A DNA stretch of 64,000 nucleotides from Escherichia coli (GTDB taxonomy: Bacteria > Pseudomonadota > Gammaproteobacteria > Enterobacterales > Enterobacteriaceae): the NCBI RefSeq assembly GCF_003334255.1, contig NZ_QOWU01000014.1; one strand, written 5' to 3'. Below are positions 3,614-16,121 of the stretch, piece by piece. Within the stretch, counting starts at the first letter, position 1; each line of letters begins with the position of its first letter. The notes beneath the pieces are model-generated. The model saw only the letters and a list, made by a program, of their open reading frames with translations. It was not told the DNA's origin and made no database searches. A program made the position numbers and the translations under genes.

Positions 3614-6934
<3,321 letters not shown>

Positions 6935-7100
6935 TTTAATATCCCTCCGGCGAATTATGCTCACAACCTGAACTTAACAGAAAACAATCCGTTCAGGGAT
7001 ACGACGTTTGTATTTTAAGAATCTGACTGCCTGACCCGACGCATTTTACCTCTCCCTATATTCATGCGTCCGGGACATAAACATAAATAAGGGCTATGAG

Positions 7101-8816
7101 ATGAATTCGTTACAAATCTTGAGTTTTGTCGGTTTTACGCTGCTGGTGGCGGTGATCACCTGGTGGAAGGTCCGCAAAACAGATACCGGATCGCAACAAG
7201 GCTATTTTCTTGCCGGACGTTCACTAAAAGCGCCGGTTATTGCCGCTTCGTTAATGCTAACCAACCTTTCCACGGAACAACTGGTCGGCCTTTCCGGGCA
7301 GGCCTACAAAAGCGGCATGTCGGTGATGGGCTGGGAAGTGACTTCAGCGGTGACGCTGATCTTCCTCGCGCTAATCTTTTTACCGCGCTATCTGAAGCGC
7401 GGCATTGCCACCATCCCCGATTTTCTGGAGGAACGTTATGATAAAACGACGCGTATTATCATCGACTTCTGCTTCCTAATTGCCACCGGCGTCTGCTTTC
7501 TGCCGATTGTTCTCTACTCCGGCGCGTTGGCGCTCAACAGCCTGTTTCACGTCGGGGAATCGCTACAGATTTCTCACGGTGCGGCTATCTGGCTACTGGT
7601 AATTTTGCTTGGTCTGGCGGGAATTTTGTATGCGGTGATCGGCGGACTGCGCGCAATGGCAGTGGCGGACTCCATCAACGGTATTGGGCTGGTTATCGGC
7701 GGGTTGATGGTGCCGGTATTTGGCCTGATCGCGATGGGCAAGGGCAGCTTTATGCAGGGCATTGAGCAACTCACCACCGTTCACGCCGAGAAATTAAACT
7801 CAATCGGTGGCCCGACCGATCCCTTGCCGATTGGCGCGGCATTTACCGGTTTGATTCTGGTGAACACCTTTTACTGGTGTACAAATCAGGGCATCGTGCA
7901 ACGCACGCTGGCGTCAAAAAGCCTGGCGGAAGGGCAAAAGGGGGCGCTGTTAACGGCGGTGCTGAAAATGCTCGACCCGCTGGTACTGGTGCTGCCAGGG
8001 TTGATTGCGTTTCATCTGTATCAGGATTTACCGAAAGCCGACATGGCCTACCCGACGCTGGTCAATAACGTTCTGCCAGTGCCAATGGTGGGTTTCTTCG
8101 GCGCGGTGTTATTTGGTGCGGTGATCAGTACCTTCAACGGCTTTCTGAATAGCGCCAGTACGTTATTCAGTATGGGTATTTACCGTCGCATCATTAACCA
8201 GAATGCCGAGCCGCAGCAGCTGGTCACCGTCGGGCGCAAATTTGGTTTCTTTATCGCTATCGTTTCGGTGCTGGTCGCGCCGTGGATCGCCAACGCGCCG
8301 CAGGGGCTGTATAGCTGGATGAAACAGCTCAACGGCATTTACAACGTGCCGCTGGTTACCATCATCATTATGGGCTTTTTCTTCCCGCGCATCCCGGCGC
8401 TGGCGGCAAAAGTAGCGATGGGGATTGGCATAATCAGCTACATCACCATCAACTATCTGGTGAAGTTCGACTTCCATTTCCTCTATGTGCTGGCCTGTAC
8501 GTTCTGCATCAACGTGGTCGTGATGCTGGTGATCGGTTTTATCAAACCGCGCGCCACGCCGTTCACCTTCAAAGATGCGTTTGCGGTGGACATGAAACCG
8601 TGGAAAAACGTCAAGATCGCGTCAATTGGCATCCTGTTCGCGATGATTGGCGTCTATGCCGGGCTGGCTGAATTCGGCGGCTACGGTACGCGCTGGTTAG
8701 CGATGATCAGTTATTTCATTGCCGCCGTAGTGATTGTCTACCTGATTTTTGACAGCTGGCGGCATCGTCACGACCCAGCCGTAACCTTTACTCCCGACGG
8801 GAAGGATAGCCTATGA
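7101..8816 (+). CDS. yidK: Sodium:solute symporter family transporter YidK
   Basis: 571-aa polytopic membrane ORF, SSF-like. Confidence 0.85.
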   Translation: MNSLQILSFVGFTLLVAVITWWKVRKTDTGSQQGYFLAGRSLKAPVIAASLMLTNLSTEQLVGLSGQAYKSGMSVMGWEVTSAVTLIFLALIFLPRYLKRGIATIPDFLEERYDKTTRIIIDFCFLIATGVCFLPIVLYSGALALNSLFHVGESLQISHGAAIWLLVILLGLAGILYAVIGGLRAMAVADSINGIGLVIGGLMVPVFGLIAMGKGSFMQGIEQLTTVHAEKLNSIGGPTDPLPIGAAFTGLILVNTFYWCTNQGIVQRTLASKSLAEGQKGALLTAVLKMLDPLVLVLPGLIAFHLYQDLPKADMAYPTLVNNVLPVPMVGFFGAVLFGAVISTFNGFLNSASTLFSMGIYRRIINQNAEPQQLVTVGRKFGFFIAIVSVLVAPWIANAPQGLYSWMKQLNGIYNVPLVTIIIMGFFFPRIPALAAKVAMGIGIISYITINYLVKFDFHFLYVLACTFCINVVVMLVIGFIKPRATPFTFKDAFAVDMKPWKNVKIASIGILFAMIGVYAGLAEFGGYGTRWLAMISYFIAAVVIVYLIFDSWRHRHDPAVTFTPDGKDSL

Positions 8817-10306
8817 AACGCCCCAATTTTCTGTTCGTCATGACCGATACCCAGGCCACCAATATGGTCGGTTGCTATAGCGGTAAACCGCTGAATACGC
8901 AAAATATTGATAGTCTGGCGGCGGAAGGTATTCGCTTTAATTCCGCCTACACCTGTTCACCGGTTTGTACGCCTGCACGGGCCGGACTATTTACCGGTAT
9001 CTACGCTAACCAGTCCGGCCCGTGGACCAACAACGTCGCGCCAGGCAAAAACATCTCCACTATGGGGCGCTACTTTAAGGATGCCGGCTATCACACCTGT
9101 TACATCGGCAAATGGCATCTCGACGGTCATGACTATTTCGGCACTGGCGAGTGTCCGCCGGAGTGGGACGCTGATTACTGGTTCGATGGGGCGAACTATC
9201 TTAGCGAACTGACGGAAAAAGAGATTAGCCTGTGGCGCAATGGCCTAAACAGCGTCGAAGATTTACAGGCGAACCATATCGACGAAACCTTCACCTGGGC
9301 GCATCGTATCAGCAATCGGGCGGTGGATTTTCTGCAACAGCCTGCGCGCGCAGACGAGCCTTTCCTGATGGTGGTTTCGTATGATGAGCCGCATCACCCG
9401 TTCACCTGTCCGGTGGAGTATTTAGAGAAATACGCTGATTTTTACTACGAGCTGGGCGAGAAAGCACAGGATGACCTGGCTAACAAACCGGAACATCACC
9501 GCTTATGGGCGCAGGCGATGCCATCGCCAGTCGGTGATGACGGGCTTTATCACCATCCGCTCTATTTTGCCTGTAATGACTTTGTTGATGACCAAATCGG
9601 ACGGGTCATCAATGCCTTAACGCCAGAGCAACGTGAAAATACGTGGGTTATTTATACCTCCGATCACGGCGAAATGATGGGCGCACATAAGCTGATCAGT
9701 AAAGGGGCGGCGATGTATGACGACATCACCCGCATTCCGCTGATCATCCGTTCGCCGCAAGGGGAGCGGCGACAGGTCGATACGCCAGTCAGTCATATCG
9801 ATTTACTGCCGACAATGATGGCGCTGGCAGATATTGAAAAACCAGAGATTCTGCCGGGGGAAAATATCCTTGCCGTGAAAGAGCCACGCGGCGTGATGGT
9901 GGAATTTAACCGCTACGAGATTGAGCATGACAGCTTTGGCGGTTTTATTCCGGTGCGTTGCTGGGTGACGGATGACTTTAAACTGGTACTCAACCTCTTC
10001 ACCAGTGATGAACTTTACGATCGCCGTAATGACCCAAATGAAATGCATAACCTGATCGATGATATCCGTTTTGCAGACGTTCGCAGCAAAATGCATGACG
10101 CCTTATTGGATTACATGGACAAAATTCGCGATCCGTTCCGCAGTTACCAATGGAGTCTGCGTCCGTGGCGTAAAGATGCACGGCCGCGCTGGATGGGGGC
10201 GTTTCGTCCACGTCCACAAGATGGCTATTCGCCAGTTGTACGCGACTATGACACCGGCCTACCGACACAAGGGGTGAAGGTGGAGGAGAAAAAACAGAAG
10301 TTCTGA
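8813..10306 (+). CDS. yidJ: Cys-type sulfatase YidJ
   Basis: 497 aa; sulfatase signature C-T-P-A-R visible in YTCSPVCTPARAGLFTG. 4-bp overlap with yidK. Confidence 0.85.
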   Translation: MKRPNFLFVMTDTQATNMVGCYSGKPLNTQNIDSLAAEGIRFNSAYTCSPVCTPARAGLFTGIYANQSGPWTNNVAPGKNISTMGRYFKDAGYHTCYIGKWHLDGHDYFGTGECPPEWDADYWFDGANYLSELTEKEISLWRNGLNSVEDLQANHIDETFTWAHRISNRAVDFLQQPARADEPFLMVVSYDEPHHPFTCPVEYLEKYADFYYELGEKAQDDLANKPEHHRLWAQAMPSPVGDDGLYHHPLYFACNDFVDDQIGRVINALTPEQRENTWVIYTSDHGEMMGAHKLISKGAAMYDDITRIPLIIRSPQGERRQVDTPVSHIDLLPTMMALADIEKPEILPGENILAVKEPRGVMVEFNRYEIEHDSFGGFIPVRCWVTDDFKLVLNLFTSDELYDRRNDPNEMHNLIDDIRFADVRSKMHDALLDYMDKIRDPFRSYQWSLRPWRKDARPRWMGAFRPRPQDGYSPVVRDYDTGLPTQGVKVEEKKQKF

Positions 10307-10309
10307 CGA

Positions 10310-10345
10310 TAATGCCCGCTGATGATCACCCGGCGGGCATTATTC
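10310..10345. terminator. Bidirectional hairpin between convergent yidJ and yidI
   Basis: Inverted repeat aatgcccgc…gcgggcatt. Confidence 0.4.
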
Positions 10346-10352
10346 AGGCTGC

Positions 10353-10802
10353 TTAAACCAGTGAACCGCCGGTCAGGAAGGAAAAGATAAGGAATATCAG
10401 CAAAATGCTGCACACGATGCCGATACCAAAAAGCAAGGTATGGAAAGCCAGCGTCCCGCCGCCAAAAACCAGCGCGCCGCGAATGCCCCAGCGATTTTCC
10501 TTACGCATACCGCCAATAAATGCGCAAAGTAGCGCAGCAATGGCCAGTGCGATACCGCTTTGATTGAGGATTTTATCGACATCTACGTCCTCTTTTTTCT
10601 CCACGGTGGTAATTTTTTCGCCTTTTATTCCGGCGAGAAGACCTCTTTTAATTTCAGCCGTTTTGTCCGCCACGATGCTTTCAAACGTTGGCGGTGGTGC
10701 GGAGAAAGGGCCGAATGAAAAGTGGATAATCCCCATCATTAAAGCGATGGCACCGAACAGCATGCCCAATGAACTGATTTTATTTTGAGCTATGATACCC
10801 AT
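10353..10802 (-). CDS. yidI: Inner membrane protein YidI
   Basis: ORF 10353..10910 minus; hydrophobic 149-aa product from MGIIAQNKISSLGMLFGAIALMMG. Confidence 0.75.
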   Translation of the reverse strand: MGIIAQNKISSLGMLFGAIALMMGIIHFSFGPFSAPPPTFESIVADKTAEIKRGLLAGIKGEKITTVEKKEDVDVDKILNQSGIALAIAALLCAFIGGMRKENRWGIRGALVFGGGTLAFHTLLFGIGIVCSILLIFLIFSFLTGGSLV

Positions 10803-10909
10803 CTGACCTCCTTGTAGCGGATGGCAAAAGCATATCAGGAAACGGGCGGACGAAATTCTTAAAAAAACCGCTAAAGGTAGAGCGTTAGTGAAATTGCAAA
10901 GGAGCAACA

Positions 10910-11257
10910 ATGAAAATTTCCCGCCTCGGAGAAGCGCCTGATTACCGCTTCTCGCTGGCTAATGAGCGTACTTTTCTGGCGTGGATCCGTACTGCACTAG
11001 GATTTCTGGCGGCGGGGGTTGGGCTTGATCAACTTGCGCCAGATTTCGCCACGCCCGTCATTCGCGAACTGCTGGCGTTGTTGTTGTGTCTGTTTTCCGG
11101 CGGGTTAGCGATGTATGGCTACTTGCGCTGGTTACGCAATGAAAAAGCGATGCGTCTGAAAGAGGACCTGCCCTACACCAACAGCTTATTAATCATTAGC
11201 TTAATATTGATGGTCGTGGCGGTGATCGTTATGGGACTGGTGTTGTATGCCGGATAG
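10910..11257 (+). CDS. yidH: Inner membrane protein YidH (DUF202-like)
   Basis: 115-aa ORF, membrane protein. Confidence 0.75.
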   Translation: MKISRLGEAPDYRFSLANERTFLAWIRTALGFLAAGVGLDQLAPDFATPVIRELLALLLCLFSGGLAMYGYLRWLRNEKAMRLKEDLPYTNSLLIISLILMVVAVIVMGLVLYAG

Positions 11258-11609
11258 CCGCAAAGCCAGACGCATTGCCGACCCAGGACTGCAGCCGGAG
11301 CGCACATCACTGGCGTGGTTTCGTACCATGCTGGGCTACGGCGCGTTGATGGCGTTGGCTATCAAACACAACTGGCACCAGGCGGGCATGTTATTCTGGA
11401 TTTCGATTGGCATTCTCGCCATCGTGGCGCTGATCCTCTGGCACTACACCCGTAATCGCAATTTAATGGATGTCACGAATAGCGATTTTTCCCAATTTCA
11501 CGTAGTCCGTGACAAATTTTTGATCTCCCTCGCGGTGTTATCTCTCGCAATACTGTTTGCTGTAACGCATATACATCAACTTATCGTATTTATTGAGAGA
11601 GTCGCATGA
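11247..11609 (+). CDS. yidG: Inner membrane protein YidG
   Basis: 120-aa ORF overlapping the yidH end. Confidence 0.75.
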   Translation: MPDSRKARRIADPGLQPERTSLAWFRTMLGYGALMALAIKHNWHQAGMLFWISIGILAIVALILWHYTRNRNLMDVTNSDFSQFHVVRDKFLISLAVLSLAILFAVTHIHQLIVFIERVA

Positions 11610-12103
11610 CAGGAAGTCAGGTCATTGATGCTGAAGAGGACAGGCATAAACTGGTTGTAGAGTACAAGGATGCTCTGCAACCTGCCGATTTTTATCACAA
11701 TTTCAAACAGCGGGGCATCCGCTCCGTACAGCTCATTCCCTATCTTGAATTTGATGACCGGGGCGATCTGACGGCCGCTTCGGTGACAGCAGAGCTGTGG
11801 GGGAAATTTTTAATTGCCCTGTTCGAGTGTTGGGTGCGGGCAGATATCAGTCGTATCTCGATTGAGCTTTTTGACGCCACCTTACAAAAATGGTGTGGCA
11901 GCGAAAACCCGCAACCGCGCTGTGACTGCCAGGCGTGCGACTGGCATCGCCTGTGCCCGCACGCTCGGCAGGAGACGCCAGACAGCGTGCTTTGTGCGGG
12001 CTATCAGGCGTTTTATTCTTACTCCGCACCGCATATGCGGGTGATGCGTGATCTGATAAAGCAGCATCGTTCTCCCATGGAGCTGATGACGATGCTGCGG
12101 TGA
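11606..12103 (+). CDS. yidF: YidF, Cys-rich protein resembling only the C-terminal part of an anaerobic sulfatase-maturating enzyme
   Basis: 165-aa ORF with Cys cluster CDCQACDWHRLCP; no CxxxCxxC radical-SAM motif. Confidence 0.75.
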   Translation: MTGSQVIDAEEDRHKLVVEYKDALQPADFYHNFKQRGIRSVQLIPYLEFDDRGDLTAASVTAELWGKFLIALFECWVRADISRISIELFDATLQKWCGSENPQPRCDCQACDWHRLCPHARQETPDSVLCAGYQAFYSYSAPHMRVMRDLIKQHRSPMELMTMLR

Positions 12104-12110
12104 CGTGCGC

Positions 12111-13295
12111 TTAAACGGGCTGCCCCTGATGCGACATCCGCGTCGCCAGCGGCAGCCAGCACAGCACGATCAACAATCCCATTAAGGTCATCAACAACCC
12201 CAGGCTGCCCTGACCGGTTTGCGGCAACATCGCAGAGAGCGACGCCAGCACGCCGGAACCAATGTTTTGCAGACCGCCGACCAGCGCGCCAGCCGTGCCC
12301 GCCAGGAAGGGGAACGGCTCCATCGCGCCGCTGGTCGCCAGCGGAAACAGCATCCCGGCACCGAAAAAGAACAGCGCGGCGGGAACGAGCAGCGTCCAGA
12401 CATTCATCACGCCAAACCAGTCGGGGATCCACATCAGCAAGCCAGCCAGCAGGCAGCAGATAACCGACTGCCACATTAACGTGGAGAAGCGTTTATTGGG
12501 ACGTCCGGCAAACCATGCGCCAAAAAACGCTGCCGGAATCGGCAGAATAAACAAAATACTGACCGTCATACTGCTCAGCCCTAACACCGCGCCCATCAGC
12601 ACGCCGGAGCAGGCTTCAAAGGCGGCAATCCCGGCCAGACCGCCAATCAGCATCAGCAAATAACAGTTAAAACCGCTGTTACCGAAAAGCGTTTTATAAC
12701 TGGTAAGCAGGCGCGTGCGCGGTGCATCGACCGGACGCGTTTCCGGCATCCAGCGGGCCATACTGAAGGTCACACCAGCACAAAGAACCAACAAAAAGAG
12801 ATAACAGGCGCGCCAGTTCCACATCGTATCCAGCAGACCGCCGATTAGCGGTGCGAGCAACGGACTGACGAGAATCCCCATGTTTAACAGGCTGTTAGCA
12901 TGGCGCAACTGTGTCCGTTCATATAAATCTCGCGGTAAAGTACGCGCCATTACGCCGCCAACGCCGGTGCCCATCCCCTGCATCGCGCTGGCGGCAATCA
13001 ACACCGTCAAACTGGAGGTCGTGACCGCGACCAGCGTTGCCAGCATAAAAATGGACATTCCGACGAGGATCACCGGTCGGCGGCCCACGCGGTCGGAAAT
13101 CGGGCCATAAAACAGCTGTGAGACACCGTAAGTCAGCAGATAAGCGCCCATTACGCTCTGCACCGCCCCTTCACGGACGTTGAGATCGCGCGCCATATCG
13201 GCAATAGCTGGAATATAAATGGTTTGCGCCATCTGACCGACGGCCACGAGTAATACCAACATCAATAACAAATTGACGTTTCTTTGCCTTTTCAT
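12111..13295 (-). CDS. emrD: MFS multidrug efflux pump EmrD
   Basis: ORF 12111..13301 minus; product from MKRQRNVNLLLMLVLLVAVGQMAQTIYIPAIADMARDL matches EmrD. Confidence 0.9.
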   Translation of the reverse strand: MKRQRNVNLLLMLVLLVAVGQMAQTIYIPAIADMARDLNVREGAVQSVMGAYLLTYGVSQLFYGPISDRVGRRPVILVGMSIFMLATLVAVTTSSLTVLIAASAMQGMGTGVGGVMARTLPRDLYERTQLRHANSLLNMGILVSPLLAPLIGGLLDTMWNWRACYLFLLVLCAGVTFSMARWMPETRPVDAPRTRLLTSYKTLFGNSGFNCYLLMLIGGLAGIAAFEACSGVLMGAVLGLSSMTVSILFILPIPAAFFGAWFAGRPNKRFSTLMWQSVICCLLAGLLMWIPDWFGVMNVWTLLVPAALFFFGAGMLFPLATSGAMEPFPFLAGTAGALVGGLQNIGSGVLASLSAMLPQTGQGSLGLLMTLMGLLIVLCWLPLATRMSHQGQPV

Positions 13296-13470
13296 TATCA
13301 CGGATGCTTTTATAAAAATAATTAGAATAAGTCACTACGCATTCCCATAAATGCGGGAGAGGAATCTATCACATTGATGAATGTTAGCCAGATATACGCC
13401 AGGAATGGGGAATTGTTTAGCGGCAGAATATGTAAACAAAAGCGGCAATAAATGTTGCCGGGAGAGATGG

Positions 13471-13506
13471 TAGGGCGGATAAGATGCGTCAGCATCGCAT
13501 CCGACA
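13471..13506. repeat. REP-like palindromic element
   Basis: tagggcggataagatgcgtcagcatcgcatccgaca resembles the REP consensus. Confidence 0.5.
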
Positions 13507-13530
13507 CCAACCCGCACGCTAAATATAAAA

Positions 13531-13558
13531 GGGGAGCGGTTTCCCGCTCCCCTTTGGT
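13531..13558 (-). terminator. Intrinsic terminator downstream of tisB
   Basis: Hairpin ggggagcgg-tttc-ccgctcccc, followed on the minus strand by a T-rich run. Confidence 0.5.
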
Positions 13559-13574
13559 GCGACTTGAATCTGAA

Positions 13575-13664
13575 TTACTTCAGGTATTTCAGAACAGCAT
13601 CAAGCAGTTGCAGTGCTGCAACAATGAGTTTGAGGATAAGAATGGCGATATCCACCAGGTTCAT
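13575..13664 (-). CDS. tisB: Type I toxin TisB (29-aa membrane peptide)
   Basis: Minus-strand ATGAACCTGGTGGATATCGCC… translates to MNLVDIAILILKLIVAALQLLDAVLKYLK then stop. Too short for the ORF track. Confidence 0.85.
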   Translation of the reverse strand: MNLVDIAILILKLIVAALQLLDAVLKYLK

Positions 13665-13898
13665 ACGCGTCTCCTGTGGTTCAGGAGCACTGCCAGCTGA
13701 CGTACCTTTCCGCTGCCTGTTGCCAGCTGTTGTGCACGCGGTATCTCAAGGAGAAACGTTGTGCTTGTTGACATAACACAGTGTGCTCACGCGGGGTTAA
13801 GGCGCTGACGGCACCACCCGTTTCAGCCAGGACTTAGTGCGCCGGGTAACGATGCGGCCCCCGCATAACACATTGCGTACAGTGATATTATAGAAGTT

Positions 13899-13918
13899 TA
13901 CTGTATAAATAAACAGTA
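13899..13918. promoter_or_regulatory. LexA (SOS) box between divergent tisAB and istR
   Basis: TACTGTATAAATAAACAGTA, a perfect CTGT-N8-ACAG. Confidence 0.8.
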
Positions 13919-14026
13919 ATATTTGGACAAAACGCAAACTGTGATCGATACTCAACTATGCACTAAATACGTCAAAATTCGTGCCGAAATTGCGCGTTCT
14001 GCGCGGAACACGTATACTTTCAGTGT

Positions 14027-14101
14027 TGACATAATACAGTGTGCTTTGCGGTTACCAGCCGCAGGCGACTGACGAAACCTCGCTCCGGCGGGGTTTTTTG
14101 T
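14027..14101 (+). ncRNA. istR: IstR-1 antitoxin sRNA (the longer IstR-2 would start ~65 nt upstream)
   Basis: …gttgacataatacagtgtgctttgcggttaccagccgcaggcgactgacgaaacctcgctccggcggggtttttt matches my recollection of IstR ending in its intrinsic terminator. 5' end is approximate. Confidence 0.65.
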
Positions 14102-14228
14102 TATCTGCAATTCAGTACAAAACGTGATCAACCCCTCAATTTTCCCTTGCTGAAAAATTTTCCATTGTCTCCCCTGTAAAGCTGTGCTTGTATAAATATT
14201 GTTAAACACAAAACCAACAAGGTCCCCA

Positions 14229-14327
14229 ATGACTACTTCCATGCTCAACGCAAAACTACTACCAACTGCGCCATCCGCCGCAGTGGTCGTCGTGCGTGTG
14301 GTGGTGGTCGTCGGCAATGCGCCGTAG
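14229..14327 (+). CDS. ivbL: ilvB operon leader peptide
   Basis: ATG…TAG encodes MTTSMLNAKLLPTAPSAAVVVVRVVVVVGNAP (Val/Leu-rich), directly upstream of an attenuator hairpin. Confidence 0.85.
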   Translation: MTTSMLNAKLLPTAPSAAVVVVRVVVVVGNAP

Positions 14328-14351
14328 GGACTGGAACAACACACGATTCCA

Positions 14352-14388
14352 AAACCCCGCCGGCGCAAACCGGGCGGGGTTTTTCGTT
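14352..14388 (+). terminator. ilvB attenuator terminator
   Basis: aaaccccgccggcgcaaaccgggcggggtttttcgttt: GC hairpin plus U-run between leader and ilvB. Confidence 0.7.
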
Positions 14389-14432
14389 TAAGCACCTCCC
14401 GGAAAGTCGGCCCAGAAGAAAAGGACTGGAGC

Positions 14433-16121
14433 ATGGCAAGTTCGGGCACAACATCGACGCGTAAGCGCTTTACCGGCGCAGAATTTATCGTTCATTTCCT
14501 GGAACAGCAGGGCATTAAGATTGTGACAGGCATTCCGGGCGGTTCTATCCTGCCTGTTTACGATGCCTTAAGCCAAAGCACGCAAATCCGCCATATTCTG
14601 GCCCGTCATGAACAGGGCGCGGGCTTTATCGCTCAGGGAATGGCGCGCACCGACGGTAAACCGGCGGTCTGTATGGCCTGTAGCGGACCGGGTGCGACTA
14701 ACCTGGTGACCGCCATTGCCGATGCGCGGCTGGACTCCATCCCGCTGATTTGCATCACTGGTCAGGTTCCCGCCTCGATGATCGGCACCGACGCCTTCCA
14801 GGAAGTGGACACCTACGGCATCTCTATCCCCATCACCAAACACAACTATCTGGTCAGACATATCGAAGAACTCCCGCAGGTCATGAGCGATGCCTTCCGC
14901 ATTGCGCAATCAGGCCGCCCAGGCCCGGTGTGGATAGACATTCCTAAGGATGTGCAAACGGCAGTTTTTGAGATTGAAACACAGCCCGCTATGGCAGAAA
15001 AAGCCGCCGCCCCCGCCTTTAGCGAAGAAAGCATTCGTGACGCAGCGGCGATGATTAACGCTGCCAAACGCCCGGTGCTTTATCTGGGCGGCGGTGTGAT
15101 CAATGCGCCCGCACGGGTGCGTGAACTGGCGGAGAAAGCGCAACTGCCTACCACCATGACTTTAATGGCGCTGGGCATGTTGCCAAAAGCGCATCCGTTG
15201 TCGCTGGGTATGCTGGGGATGCACGGCGTGCGCAGCACCAACTATATTTTGCAGGAGGCGGATTTGTTGATAGTGCTCGGTGCGCGTTTTGATGACCGGG
15301 CGATTGGCAAAACCGAGCAGTTCTGTCCGAATGCCAAAATCATTCATGTCGATATCGACCGTGCAGAGCTGGGTAAAATCAAGCAGCCGCACGTGGCGAT
15401 TCAGGCGGATGTTGATGACGTGCTGGCGCAGTTGATCCCGCTGGTGGAAGCGCAACCGCGTGCAGAGTGGCACCAGTTGGTAGCGGATTTGCAGCGTGAG
15501 TTTCCGTGTCCAATCCCGAAAGCGTGCGATCCGTTAAGCCATTACGGCCTGATCAACGCCGTTGCCGCCTGTGTCGATGACAATGCAATTATCACCACCG
15601 ACGTTGGTCAGCATCAGATGTGGACCGCGCAAGCTTATCCGCTCAATCGCCCACGCCAGTGGCTGACCTCCGGTGGGCTGGGCACGATGGGTTTTGGCCT
15701 GCCTGCGGCGATTGGCGCTGCGCTGGCGAACCCGGATCGCAAAGTGTTGTGTTTCTCCGGCGACGGCAGCCTGATGATGAATATTCAGGAGATGGCGACC
15801 GCCAGTGAAAATCAGCTGGATGTCAAAATCATTCTGATGAACAACGAAGCGCTGGGGCTGGTGCATCAGCAACAGAGTCTGTTCTACGAGCAAGGCGTTT
15901 TTGCCGCCACCTATCCGGGCAAAATCAACTTTATGCAGATTGCCGCCGGATTCGGCCTCGAAACCTGTGATTTGAATAACGAAGCCGATCCGCAGGCTTC
16001 ATTGCAGGAAATCATCAATCGCCCTGGCCCGGCGCTGATCCATGTGCGCATTGATGCCGAAGAAAAAGTTTACCCGATGGTGCCGCCAGGTGCGGCGAAT
16101 ACTGAAATGGTGGGGGAATAA
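14433..16121 (+). CDS. ilvB: Acetolactate synthase I, large subunit
   Basis: 562-aa ORF with thiamine-pyrophosphate enzyme motifs; starts MASSGTTSTRKRFTGAEFIVHFLEQQGIK. Confidence 0.95.
   Translation: MASSGTTSTRKRFTGAEFIVHFLEQQGIKIVTGIPGGSILPVYDALSQSTQIRHILARHEQGAGFIAQGMARTDGKPAVCMACSGPGATNLVTAIADARLDSIPLICITGQVPASMIGTDAFQEVDTYGISIPITKHNYLVRHIEELPQVMSDAFRIAQSGRPGPVWIDIPKDVQTAVFEIETQPAMAEKAAAPAFSEESIRDAAAMINAAKRPVLYLGGGVINAPARVRELAEKAQLPTTMTLMALGMLPKAHPLSLGMLGMHGVRSTNYILQEADLLIVLGARFDDRAIGKTEQFCPNAKIIHVDIDRAELGKIKQPHVAIQADVDDVLAQLIPLVEAQPRAEWHQLVADLQREFPCPIPKACDPLSHYGLINAVAACVDDNAIITTDVGQHQMWTAQAYPLNRPRQWLTSGGLGTMGFGLPAAIGAALANPDRKVLCFSGDGSLMMNIQEMATASENQLDVKIILMNNEALGLVHQQQSLFYEQGVFAATYPGKINFMQIAAGFGLETCDLNNEADPQASLQEIINRPGPALIHVRIDAEEKVYPMVPPGAANTEMVGE

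Follow-up and report, generated by a model that had tools for sequence, protein, structure and literature searches.

How does Escherichia coli activate the sulfatase YidJ, and what has become of the maturase-like gene, yidF, that lies downstream of it? The question is posed by the gene order yidL-yidK-yidJ-yidI-yidH-yidG-yidF-emrD, given by both the annotation and the open reading frame (ORF) calls, in a 64,000-nucleotide (nt) stretch of E. coli contig NZ_QOWU01000014.1 (assembly GCF_003334255.1; hereafter the window), in which emrD is convergent with yidF. YidF is named a "radical SAM protein" (SAM, S-adenosylmethionine) by the Prokaryotic Genome Annotation Pipeline (PGAP) and an "uncharacterized protein" in the MG1655 record. 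We find that it is almost certainly the reduced derivative of an anaerobic sulfatase-maturating enzyme (anSME) that has lost its catalytic core, and we favor, with moderate confidence, the composite view that this anSME remnant is conserved, probably has a second job and leaves YidJ dependent on another factor for its activation. Recombinant sulfatases are as a standard produced in E. coli, and Cys-type formylglycine formation there is not fully understood.

The two proteins at issue and the parts of YidF that are considered below, with the auxiliary cluster II of anSMEs abbreviated Aux II, the hidden Markov model evidence HMM, the predicted local distance difference test pLDDT and amino acids aa, are as follows.

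8813..10306, + strand: yidJ, a family S1 (formylglycine-dependent) sulfatase of 497 aa.
11606..12103, + strand: yidF, a 165-aa reduced anSME derivative (ORF, HMM, alignment and fold).
11606..11623, + strand: the retained ancestral N terminus of YidF, MTGSQV, which is MTGC(Q/H)V in full-length forms (alignment, ATGA overlap).
11654..11905, + strand: YidF residues 17-100, the last strand-helix units of a radical-SAM partial barrel (TIGR03942 positions 160-245; anSMEcpe 175-246; pLDDT 87-97).
11927..11995, + strand: C108-x2-C111-x5-C117...C130 of YidF, the equivalents of the Aux II cysteines (residue-by-residue alignment).
11996..12100, + strand: YidF residues 131-165, the C-terminal helices AGYQAFYSYSAPHMRVMRDLIKQHRSPMELMTMLR, the most conserved part of YidF (near-invariant columns; pLDDT 87-93).

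A first reading of this DNA from its sequence alone (the sequence-only reading) had likened the cysteine cluster of YidF to the auxiliary-cluster region of anSMEs and had held the protein, which it saw to be without a CxxxCxxC motif, to be far too short for a complete radical-SAM enzyme. Both statements are borne out. The Cx3Cx2C motif is absent from the whole 165-aa protein, and a TGA in the same frame, four codons 5' of the ATG, bounds the ORF. The cysteine cluster, CDCQACDWHRLCP, occupies residues 106-118 (window 11921-11959), and in a sequence search of the PDB, residues 27-95 of YidF correspond to residues 175-246 of anSMEcpe and residues 105-152 to residues 314-370, so that, beyond the loss of the N-terminal core, about 65 residues of the SPASM domain are absent between the two aligned stretches. 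Within the second stretch, C108, C111, C117 and C130 align with anSMEcpe C317, C320, C326 and C348. These four are the Aux II ligands according to the statement in PMC5715301 that quotes the structure paper, with C255, C261, C276 and C330 as the ligands of Aux I. All four Aux I equivalents are absent from YidF, the C255/C261/C276 segment being deleted and the C330 equivalent lost, and the protein does not hold a complete SPASM domain (PF13186 / TIGR04085, both auxiliary clusters). C108, C111 and C130 are invariant across 75 sequences, and C117 is nearly invariant in a 22-sequence alignment. Two other gene models were discarded: a longer yidF ORF, which the upstream in-frame stop rules out, and a split gene, since other anSME fragments are absent from the 64-kb window.

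The HMM search against radical-SAM and SPASM models that the sequence-only reading had proposed as a check gave a partial, subthreshold match to TIGR03942 (anSME) of 75.1 bits against a cutoff of 349.45, covering model positions 160-245 of 363 and a second short stretch, and a Pfam scan of YidF returned no match, neither Radical_SAM nor SPASM. An origin of YidF from an unrelated family, which that reading had named as the outcome that would overturn it, is not what we observe. An AlphaFold model built from the 75-sequence alignment (pLDDT 82.5, predicted template modeling score 0.81) has as its sole significant PDB fold matches the anSMEcpe entries 4K36-4K39 (TMq ~0.63, probability 1.0), and the full-length enzymes that occupy the position of yidF in other genomes pass TIGR03942 outright.

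These full-length enzymes came from a scan of one genome per species with the YidF-family alignment, in which loci were found through the conserved C-terminal peptide. We recovered 80 loci with the arrangement (yidL-yidK-yidJ)-yidH-yidG-X, most with emrD downstream; 77 are labelled Enterobacteriaceae, the exceptions being two Limnobaculum and one apparently mislabelled "Chryseobacterium." At 42 of the 80, X is an ORF of 350-384 aa with a Cx3Cx2C motif, beginning MTGC(Q/H)VMAKPASSRCNLxCRYCFY (CNLxCRYC at residues 15-22), and in all about 45 other Enterobacteriaceae species carry a full-length anSME, of 367-384 aa, at the yidF position. The syntenic enzymes of Citrobacter werkmanii and Atlantibacter score 484 and 473 bits with TIGR03942 (cutoff 349). 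Most of the full-length ORFs overlap the yidG stop by ATGA, and some begin up to 10 nt downstream; E. coli YidF begins with MTGSQV at the same ATGA overlap and ends in the same C-terminal tail. Start, stop and locus are therefore ancestral and common to YidF and the full-length enzymes, which makes YidF their orthologue. A separate search based on YidG found four further contexts, a 176-aa short form in Salmonella enterica subsp. enterica and full-length forms in Enterobacter cloacae, Citrobacter koseri and Citrobacter rodentium, and yidF overlaps the yidG stop in all four. The yidH-yidG-yidF trio is kept where yidLKJ is absent. Kosakonia (L036, L037, L061, L063, L065, L068, L077), Yokenella (L081) and loci L069-L071 and L074 have yidH-yidG with a full-length Cx3Cx2C anSME and no adjoining yidL-yidK-yidJ.

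Three apparent oddities in the locus set were rejected on inspection: a two-gene anSME split in L002 is an assembly artefact from two N bases, a yidG-yidF fusion in L032 is contradicted by a stop codon between the genes, and a seemingly intact yidF ORF in L064 has an internal stop. The yid locus of "Chryseobacterium sp. 18061" (L082) is enterobacterial and closely resembles the one in Citrobacter sp. 18056 (L056), with which it forms a sister pair in the tree; the assembly is probably mislabelled or contaminated.

With respect to how the gene was shortened, alignment of yidF DNA to the C. werkmanii gene shows mainly in-frame gaps of 243, 183 and 144 nt, together with shorter ones. The total loss in E. 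coli YidF is about 205 codons, of which about 140-150, including Cx3Cx2C, are missing directly after MTGSQV; about 48 codons (the 144 nt) with three Aux I cysteines are gone just upstream of C108, and a loss of four codons 3' of C117 removes the fourth. The suggestion of the sequence-only reading that YidF is a truncated maturase is thus right as far as a reduced anSME is concerned, and wrong as regards a simple N-terminal cut, given that the ancestral start and six residues are kept and that there are internal losses. We regard the origin of YidF from a full-length anSME, and this deletion anatomy, as very nearly certain.

YidF shares with the known anSMEs (AtsB, AslB, ChuR, anSMEcpe; TIGR03942; radical-SAM/SPASM) the last barrel units, the CxxCx5C...C Aux II motif, the C-terminal helices and a common descent, and it is the positional orthologue of full-length members and adjoins a Cys-type sulfatase. 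It differs from them in the loss of Cx3Cx2C, of the Aux I cysteines and of the greater part of the SAM/substrate barrel, and in scoring far below the family cutoff. Since it fails the radical-SAM motif, the HMM cutoff and a complete SPASM domain, YidF should not be filed as an anSME or as a "radical SAM protein." A comparison can also be made with the twitch radical-SAM enzymes (BtrN, MoaA), which have one auxiliary [4Fe-4S] site and keep the radical-SAM core and the first SPASM half, whereas YidF keeps the second SPASM half (Aux II) and has no radical-SAM core.

The reduction is graded and recurrent. Among the homologues and loci, we observe a series from intact enzymes through motif-dead forms of 360-363 aa and intermediates of 197-315 aa to minimal forms of 153-178 aa. 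Full-length proteins in which the cluster motif is destroyed occur, for instance, in RIT691 (360 aa) and P0122 (363 aa), and minimal forms in Escherichia, part of Citrobacter, Salmonella enterica, Superficieibacter, Klebsiella indica, Lelliottia, Leclercia, Silvania, Pseudenterobacter and others. The deletion end-points vary between groups, and the same core of about 150 aa is left each time, consisting of the last barrel units, CxxCx5C...C and the C-terminal helices. Over this shared core, the Leclercia short form is 78% identical to Leclercia full-length versus 46% to E. coli short, the Citrobacter amalonaticus ku-bf3 short form is 64-68% identical to full-length relatives versus 53% to the Citrobacter freundii-type short form, and the Kluyvera sichuanensis short form is 57% identical to Kluyvera full-length versus 47% to E. 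coli short; the Leclercia/Silvania grouping has a neighbor-joining bootstrap of 170/200. Short forms are nearer to full-length proteins of their own genus than to foreign short forms, and the reduction has therefore occurred repeatedly, probably on four or more occasions judging from these similarities.

Loss of the catalytic core goes together with loss of the sulfatase gene. Full-length YidF is found with yidJ at 29 loci and without it at 13, short YidF with yidJ at 9 and without it at 32, an association of intact maturase and yidJ with an odds ratio of about 8, uncorrected for phylogeny, that fits the ancestral enzyme as the maturase of YidJ. Escherichia is among the minority lineages that keep yidJ beside a short YidF.

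To account for these patterns, we propose an ancestor in which a full-length anSME would have been co-transcribed and translationally coupled with the DUF202 pair yidH-yidG, downstream of the symporter-sulfatase pair yidK-yidJ and under the AraC regulator yidL. In the Escherichia lineage, in-frame internal deletions took away the motif of the radical-SAM cluster, the greater part of the SAM-binding barrel and that half of SPASM in which Aux I lies, and left the ancestral start and stop and a core of about 150 residues with the last barrel units, the four Aux II cysteines and the C-terminal helices. Because the cluster motif and the SAM site are missing, YidF should be unable to carry out radical Cys-to-formylglycine oxidation, and YidJ would be matured in trans. 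Judging from cysteine conservation, the core that remains would most likely hold a single [4Fe-4S] cluster of the Aux II type, and, because the yidH-yidG-yidF trio is the invariant unit of the locus, it probably has a radical-SAM-independent role with YidG/YidH. Taken jointly, cluster binding and a YidGH-linked role make a tentative claim, to which we give somewhat less than an even chance. In anSMEs, Aux II is a surface-proximal cluster that is thought to exchange electrons with an external partner, and by analogy a membrane-associated redox or docking role of the YidF core is conceivable. The DUF202 literature that we searched offers only eukaryotic VTC/polyphosphate contexts and nothing on the function of bacterial YidG/YidH.

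Two further proposals start from the same retained core. Short YidF might be a noncatalytic modulator of other anSMEs, a decoy or adaptor that binds AslB/YdeM, their redox partner or the precursors of sulfatases. Such a role would suit the survival of the surface-proximal Aux II region and of the C-terminal helices, the conservation of the protein without a local sulfatase and the intact paralogue in the same genome; the invariant genomic partners of YidF are nevertheless yidH and yidG, not aslB or ydeM, and we consider a modulator improbable. The boldest extension of our own proposal is that the core of about 150 aa is an autonomous single-Aux II-cluster protein which, with YidG/YidH, would have a radical-SAM-independent activity also in the full-length enzymes of the clade, and which would itself be, or feed electrons to, the long-sought third formylglycine system, through which E. 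coli would activate Cys-type sulfatases without the formylglycine-generating enzyme (FGE), AslB or YdeM. We regard this as a long shot.

If YidF were a functionless relic, a pseudogene still open by chance and slowly decaying, its sequence should have evolved neutrally since truncation. We therefore compared ratios of nonsynonymous to synonymous substitution rates (dN/dS; pairwise Nei-Gojobori) between genomes with the same truncated architecture, which captures post-truncation evolution only. Short yidF shows dN/dS of 0.12-0.30 in Escherichia, 0.16-0.21 in Citrobacter (no yidJ at the locus), 0.11 between Salmonella arizonae and diarizonae, 0.32 in Silvania (no yidJ), 0.19 in Superficieibacter and 0.27 for a Lelliottia / Enterobacter metagenome-assembled genome pair (no yidJ; pair without bootstrap), with 95% upper bounds of at most 0.56 in the eleven bootstrapped pairs. 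Values of 0.11-0.32 with upper confidence limits below 0.6, in six independent groups that each share a truncated architecture, speak against a relic. For comparison, full-length orthologues have dN/dS of 0.06-0.13, and about 0.20 in Kosakonia, which is without the sulfatase. Constraint is uneven along the protein, and the C-terminal 35 residues, at 0.02-0.05 with ordinary synonymous divergence, also argue against decay; the barrel remnant is at about 0.12. Furthermore, Escherichia forms are all exactly 165 codons with zero indels, and in a substitution-only neutral simulation at the observed synonymous divergence (dS; E. coli versus cryptic clades), the frame stays open in ≤0.1% of trials (P ~0.001 or less). 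At most degenerate loci a single reading frame still runs between the ancestral start and stop codons (L018, L035, L054, L064 and L080 are disrupted), and every one of the independent deletions preserves the frame and leads to the same core, in which the Aux II cysteines are retained. Short yidF does not have the dN/dS near 1 and the accumulating lesions of a neutral pseudogene, and we consider it very likely that the reduced gene has been under purifying selection since truncation, including in genomes without yidJ.

Several observations weigh against this reading, and some of them are what a relic would lead one to expect. The catalytic cluster motif and half of SPASM are lost, the shortened forms make up a graded series of ever shorter proteins, and truncation is associated with sulfatase loss. 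Short yidF evolves several-fold faster than its neighbours (dN/dS 0.01-0.05 for yidH and 0.04-0.12 for yidG), and between E. coli and E. albertii YidF is 82% identical where YidG and YidH are 98-99%. Frameshifts or stops interrupt the gene in the type strain of E. albertii, Leclercia adecarboxylata NCTC13032 and Enterobacter sp. EA-1, and it is hence dispensable in some strains; many rare yidF frameshift alleles occur in E. coli assemblies, some of them maybe assembly errors. Some of the pairwise dN/dS estimates are near saturation, and the high dS of yidF in Escherichia (0.74-0.82, versus 0.39-0.53 for yidH, yidJ and emrD) slightly deflates its dN/dS, which with the flanking dS is still only about 0.18. 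The search through the C-terminal peptide would miss fully decayed relics. As to the proposed cluster, the cysteine region has the most relaxed dN/dS of the protein (about 0.25), C. freundii-type short forms have Tyr at the C117 position, and the cysteine loops of the model are of low confidence (pLDDT 54-64). Cysteine conservation is all that speaks for Fe-S binding by YidF, and conserved gene order with overlapping codons is all that speaks for the link to YidGH. We found no protein-level evidence for YidF, and the sole expression hint is its listing in an RNA interactome of GcvB determined by RIL-seq, where the yidF transcript appears among the chimeras independent of the R1 seed (listing in PMC9299463), which hints that yidF mRNA is expressed and Hfq-bound. 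In sum, against the conservation described above, we judge a functionless relic unlikely, and we continue with a conserved remnant that probably has a second function.

In the specific case of E. albertii NBRC 107761 (L018), yidK and yidJ are deleted, the last ~60 yidL codons stand beside yidI, and yidF is frameshifted; the other E. albertii YidF entries of the protein database have the intact length of 165 aa. In strain E69 (L007), YidJ is 99% but YidF 82% identical to K-12, and this contrast and the raised dS suggest that yidF is a recombination mosaic or is represented by old alleles.

The resemblance of YidF to a maturase is implicit in existing annotation and so is not new. In the literature searched, we did not find the orthology to full-length enzymes with start and stop kept, the repeated convergence on a single core or the purifying selection that acts on it; no paper there contains both "yidF" and "sulfatase," and most matches to "yidF" are either unrelated text or a misspelling of YdiF. 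Earlier databases of E. coli genes presumably list YidF as a putative YidJ-maturating enzyme.

If YidF no longer has a catalytic core, the state of its former substrate becomes informative. The C-T-P-A-R signature attributed to YidJ by the sequence-only reading is confirmed at residues 52-56 (codons at window 8966-8980, + strand), within CTPARAGLFTG, which at residue 52 is invariant in all 38 YidJ orthologues examined and matches (C/S)-x-P-x-R followed by xxxxTG. The PDB relatives of YidJ are carbohydrate-active S1 sulfatases (E=3e-46 to 1e-39, over residues 2-444), its orthologues carry PF00884 and PF16347, and its NCBIfam arylsulfatase and choline-sulfatase matches lie below the equivalog cutoffs. 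YidJ residue 2 aligns with residue ~25 of the PDB relatives; the alignment thus begins at the very start of YidJ, which therefore is without a signal peptide and presumably cytoplasmic. In Escherichia and Superficieibacter, where YidF is short, YidJ has a dN/dS of 0.03-0.05.

YidJ has been constrained since before the Escherichia radiation while YidF is without its core, and therefore either the conversion of Cys52 is encoded elsewhere or YidJ works unmodified, which to our knowledge would be unprecedented for its family. We infer that E. coli YidJ is matured in trans. The idea that the maturase of this locus works in trans, raised in the sequence-only reading, is in this way supported by inference: Escherichia all have truncated YidF, the YidJ signature is invariant, dN/dS is low, and AslB is intact. 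The persistence of strong selection on YidJ through the Escherichia radiation, despite a maturase that lost its core, is a natural experiment; because this selection was kept without a catalytic YidF, a trans-acting activity would have to exist, and yidJ is a native substrate with which to seek it.

AslB (b3800, beside aslA) is the obvious candidate for maturing YidJ in trans. It belongs to the same superfamily, YidF aligns to AslB residues 173-306 and 351-402, and it shares 46% identity with the full-length C. werkmanii enzyme of the YidF type. It differs from YidF in its 411 aa, its intact CNLNCDYC, its full SPASM domain and its not being associated with DUF202 genes, and is a candidate trans enzyme rather than an equivalent of YidF. 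Candidates for the trans maturase are thus AslB (or YdeM) anaerobically, or the third formylglycine-forming Cys-type system of E. coli that a 2021 paper reports as still unidentified.

The same report leaves room for another proposal, that reduced YidF, perhaps with YidG/YidH, is a non-radical-SAM maturation factor for YidJ and part of that third activity. In its favor are the origin of the protein from a dedicated maturase, its persistence at the locus of the sulfatase in Escherichia, S. enterica subsp. arizonae and Superficieibacter, the purifying selection on it, and the strong constraint on YidJ without a catalytic anSME encoded in cis. Against it, there is no known chemistry for Cys-to-formylglycine conversion with a single auxiliary-type cluster and without SAM or O2/Cu sites, the substrate-binding barrel and the region of the anSME catalytic residues are deleted, and the short form is equally conserved where the locus has no yidJ (Citrobacter, Salmonella enterica subsp. 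enterica, Silvania, Lelliottia and others). We consider such a factor very improbable and retain maturation of YidJ in trans as the preferred reading.

The repeated in-frame whittling to one conserved core suggests a second, unrecognised function of the Aux II/C-terminal module of anSMEs, and suggests the same for the constant companions of the YidF core, the uncharacterised DUF202 proteins of bacteria. It is also a warning against two easy annotations of yidF, the current PGAP "radical SAM protein" and "pseudogene."

The remaining genes of the locus are listed here.

6041..6934, - strand: yidL, AraC-family regulator, divergent from yidK (ORF, annotation, AraC-family HMM matches; co-occurs with yidK-yidJ in other genera).
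7101..8816, + strand: yidK, solute:sodium symporter (NF007790, 857 bits, cutoff 401; TIGR00813).
10353..10802, - strand: yidI, small membrane protein (annotation).
10910..11257, + strand: yidH, DUF202 inner-membrane protein (annotation; PF02656 in orthologues; present in every locus examined).
11247..11609, + strand: yidG, second DUF202 inner-membrane protein (annotation).

ATGA overlaps occur at the yidK/yidJ and yidG/yidF junctions, and yidH and yidG overlap by 11 nt. A yidI gene separates yidJ from yidH only in Escherichia, C. rodentium and a few other Citrobacter, and as remnants in Salmonella; in most genera, the yidJ-yidH gap is only ~15-100 bp, without yidI between. As an opposite-strand gene with no counterpart at this position in most genera, yidI is therefore a lineage-specific insertion that splits an ancestral yidKJ-HG-anSME transcription unit and stands outside the ancestral cassette. 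The cassette drawn in the sequence-only reading (yidK, yidJ, yidI/H/G, yidF) accordingly holds for the symporter, the sulfatase, the DUF202 pair and yidF, and has to give up yidI, which is on the opposite strand. A sulfated sugar as the substrate of the cassette is a plausible guess. A promoter and terminator scan of the locus found one weak promoter-like site versus five expected by chance.

Across window 6,000-13,400, the DNA matches E. coli K-12-type chromosomes at 100% identity, and of 5,426 complete E. coli genomes, 5,422 have this region. In NZ_AP045777.1, an IS2-family insertion lies within the otherwise identical region, so that the match comes in two pieces and is ~1.3 kb longer than the query.

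Directly 3' of yidF, Citrobacter, Salmonella and Enterobacter carry the D-serine operon, dsdA, dsdX and dsdC (L003 8544-12389; L087 4972-8363; L088-L090). A table in PMC12363166 lists D-serine resistance as boosted by YidF overexpression, and a link to the dsd neighbourhood may be coincidence. Upstream of yidL, window ~5230-6044 holds a glvG pseudogene and the glvB/glvC phosphotransferase system genes, which are annotated as frameshifted or with an internal stop in K-12-type genomes. Downstream of emrD, window 13300-16121 holds ysdE, the tisB toxin gene with the IstR small RNAs, and the ivbL leader followed by ilvB, which are ordinary K-12 features unrelated to the yidF finding.

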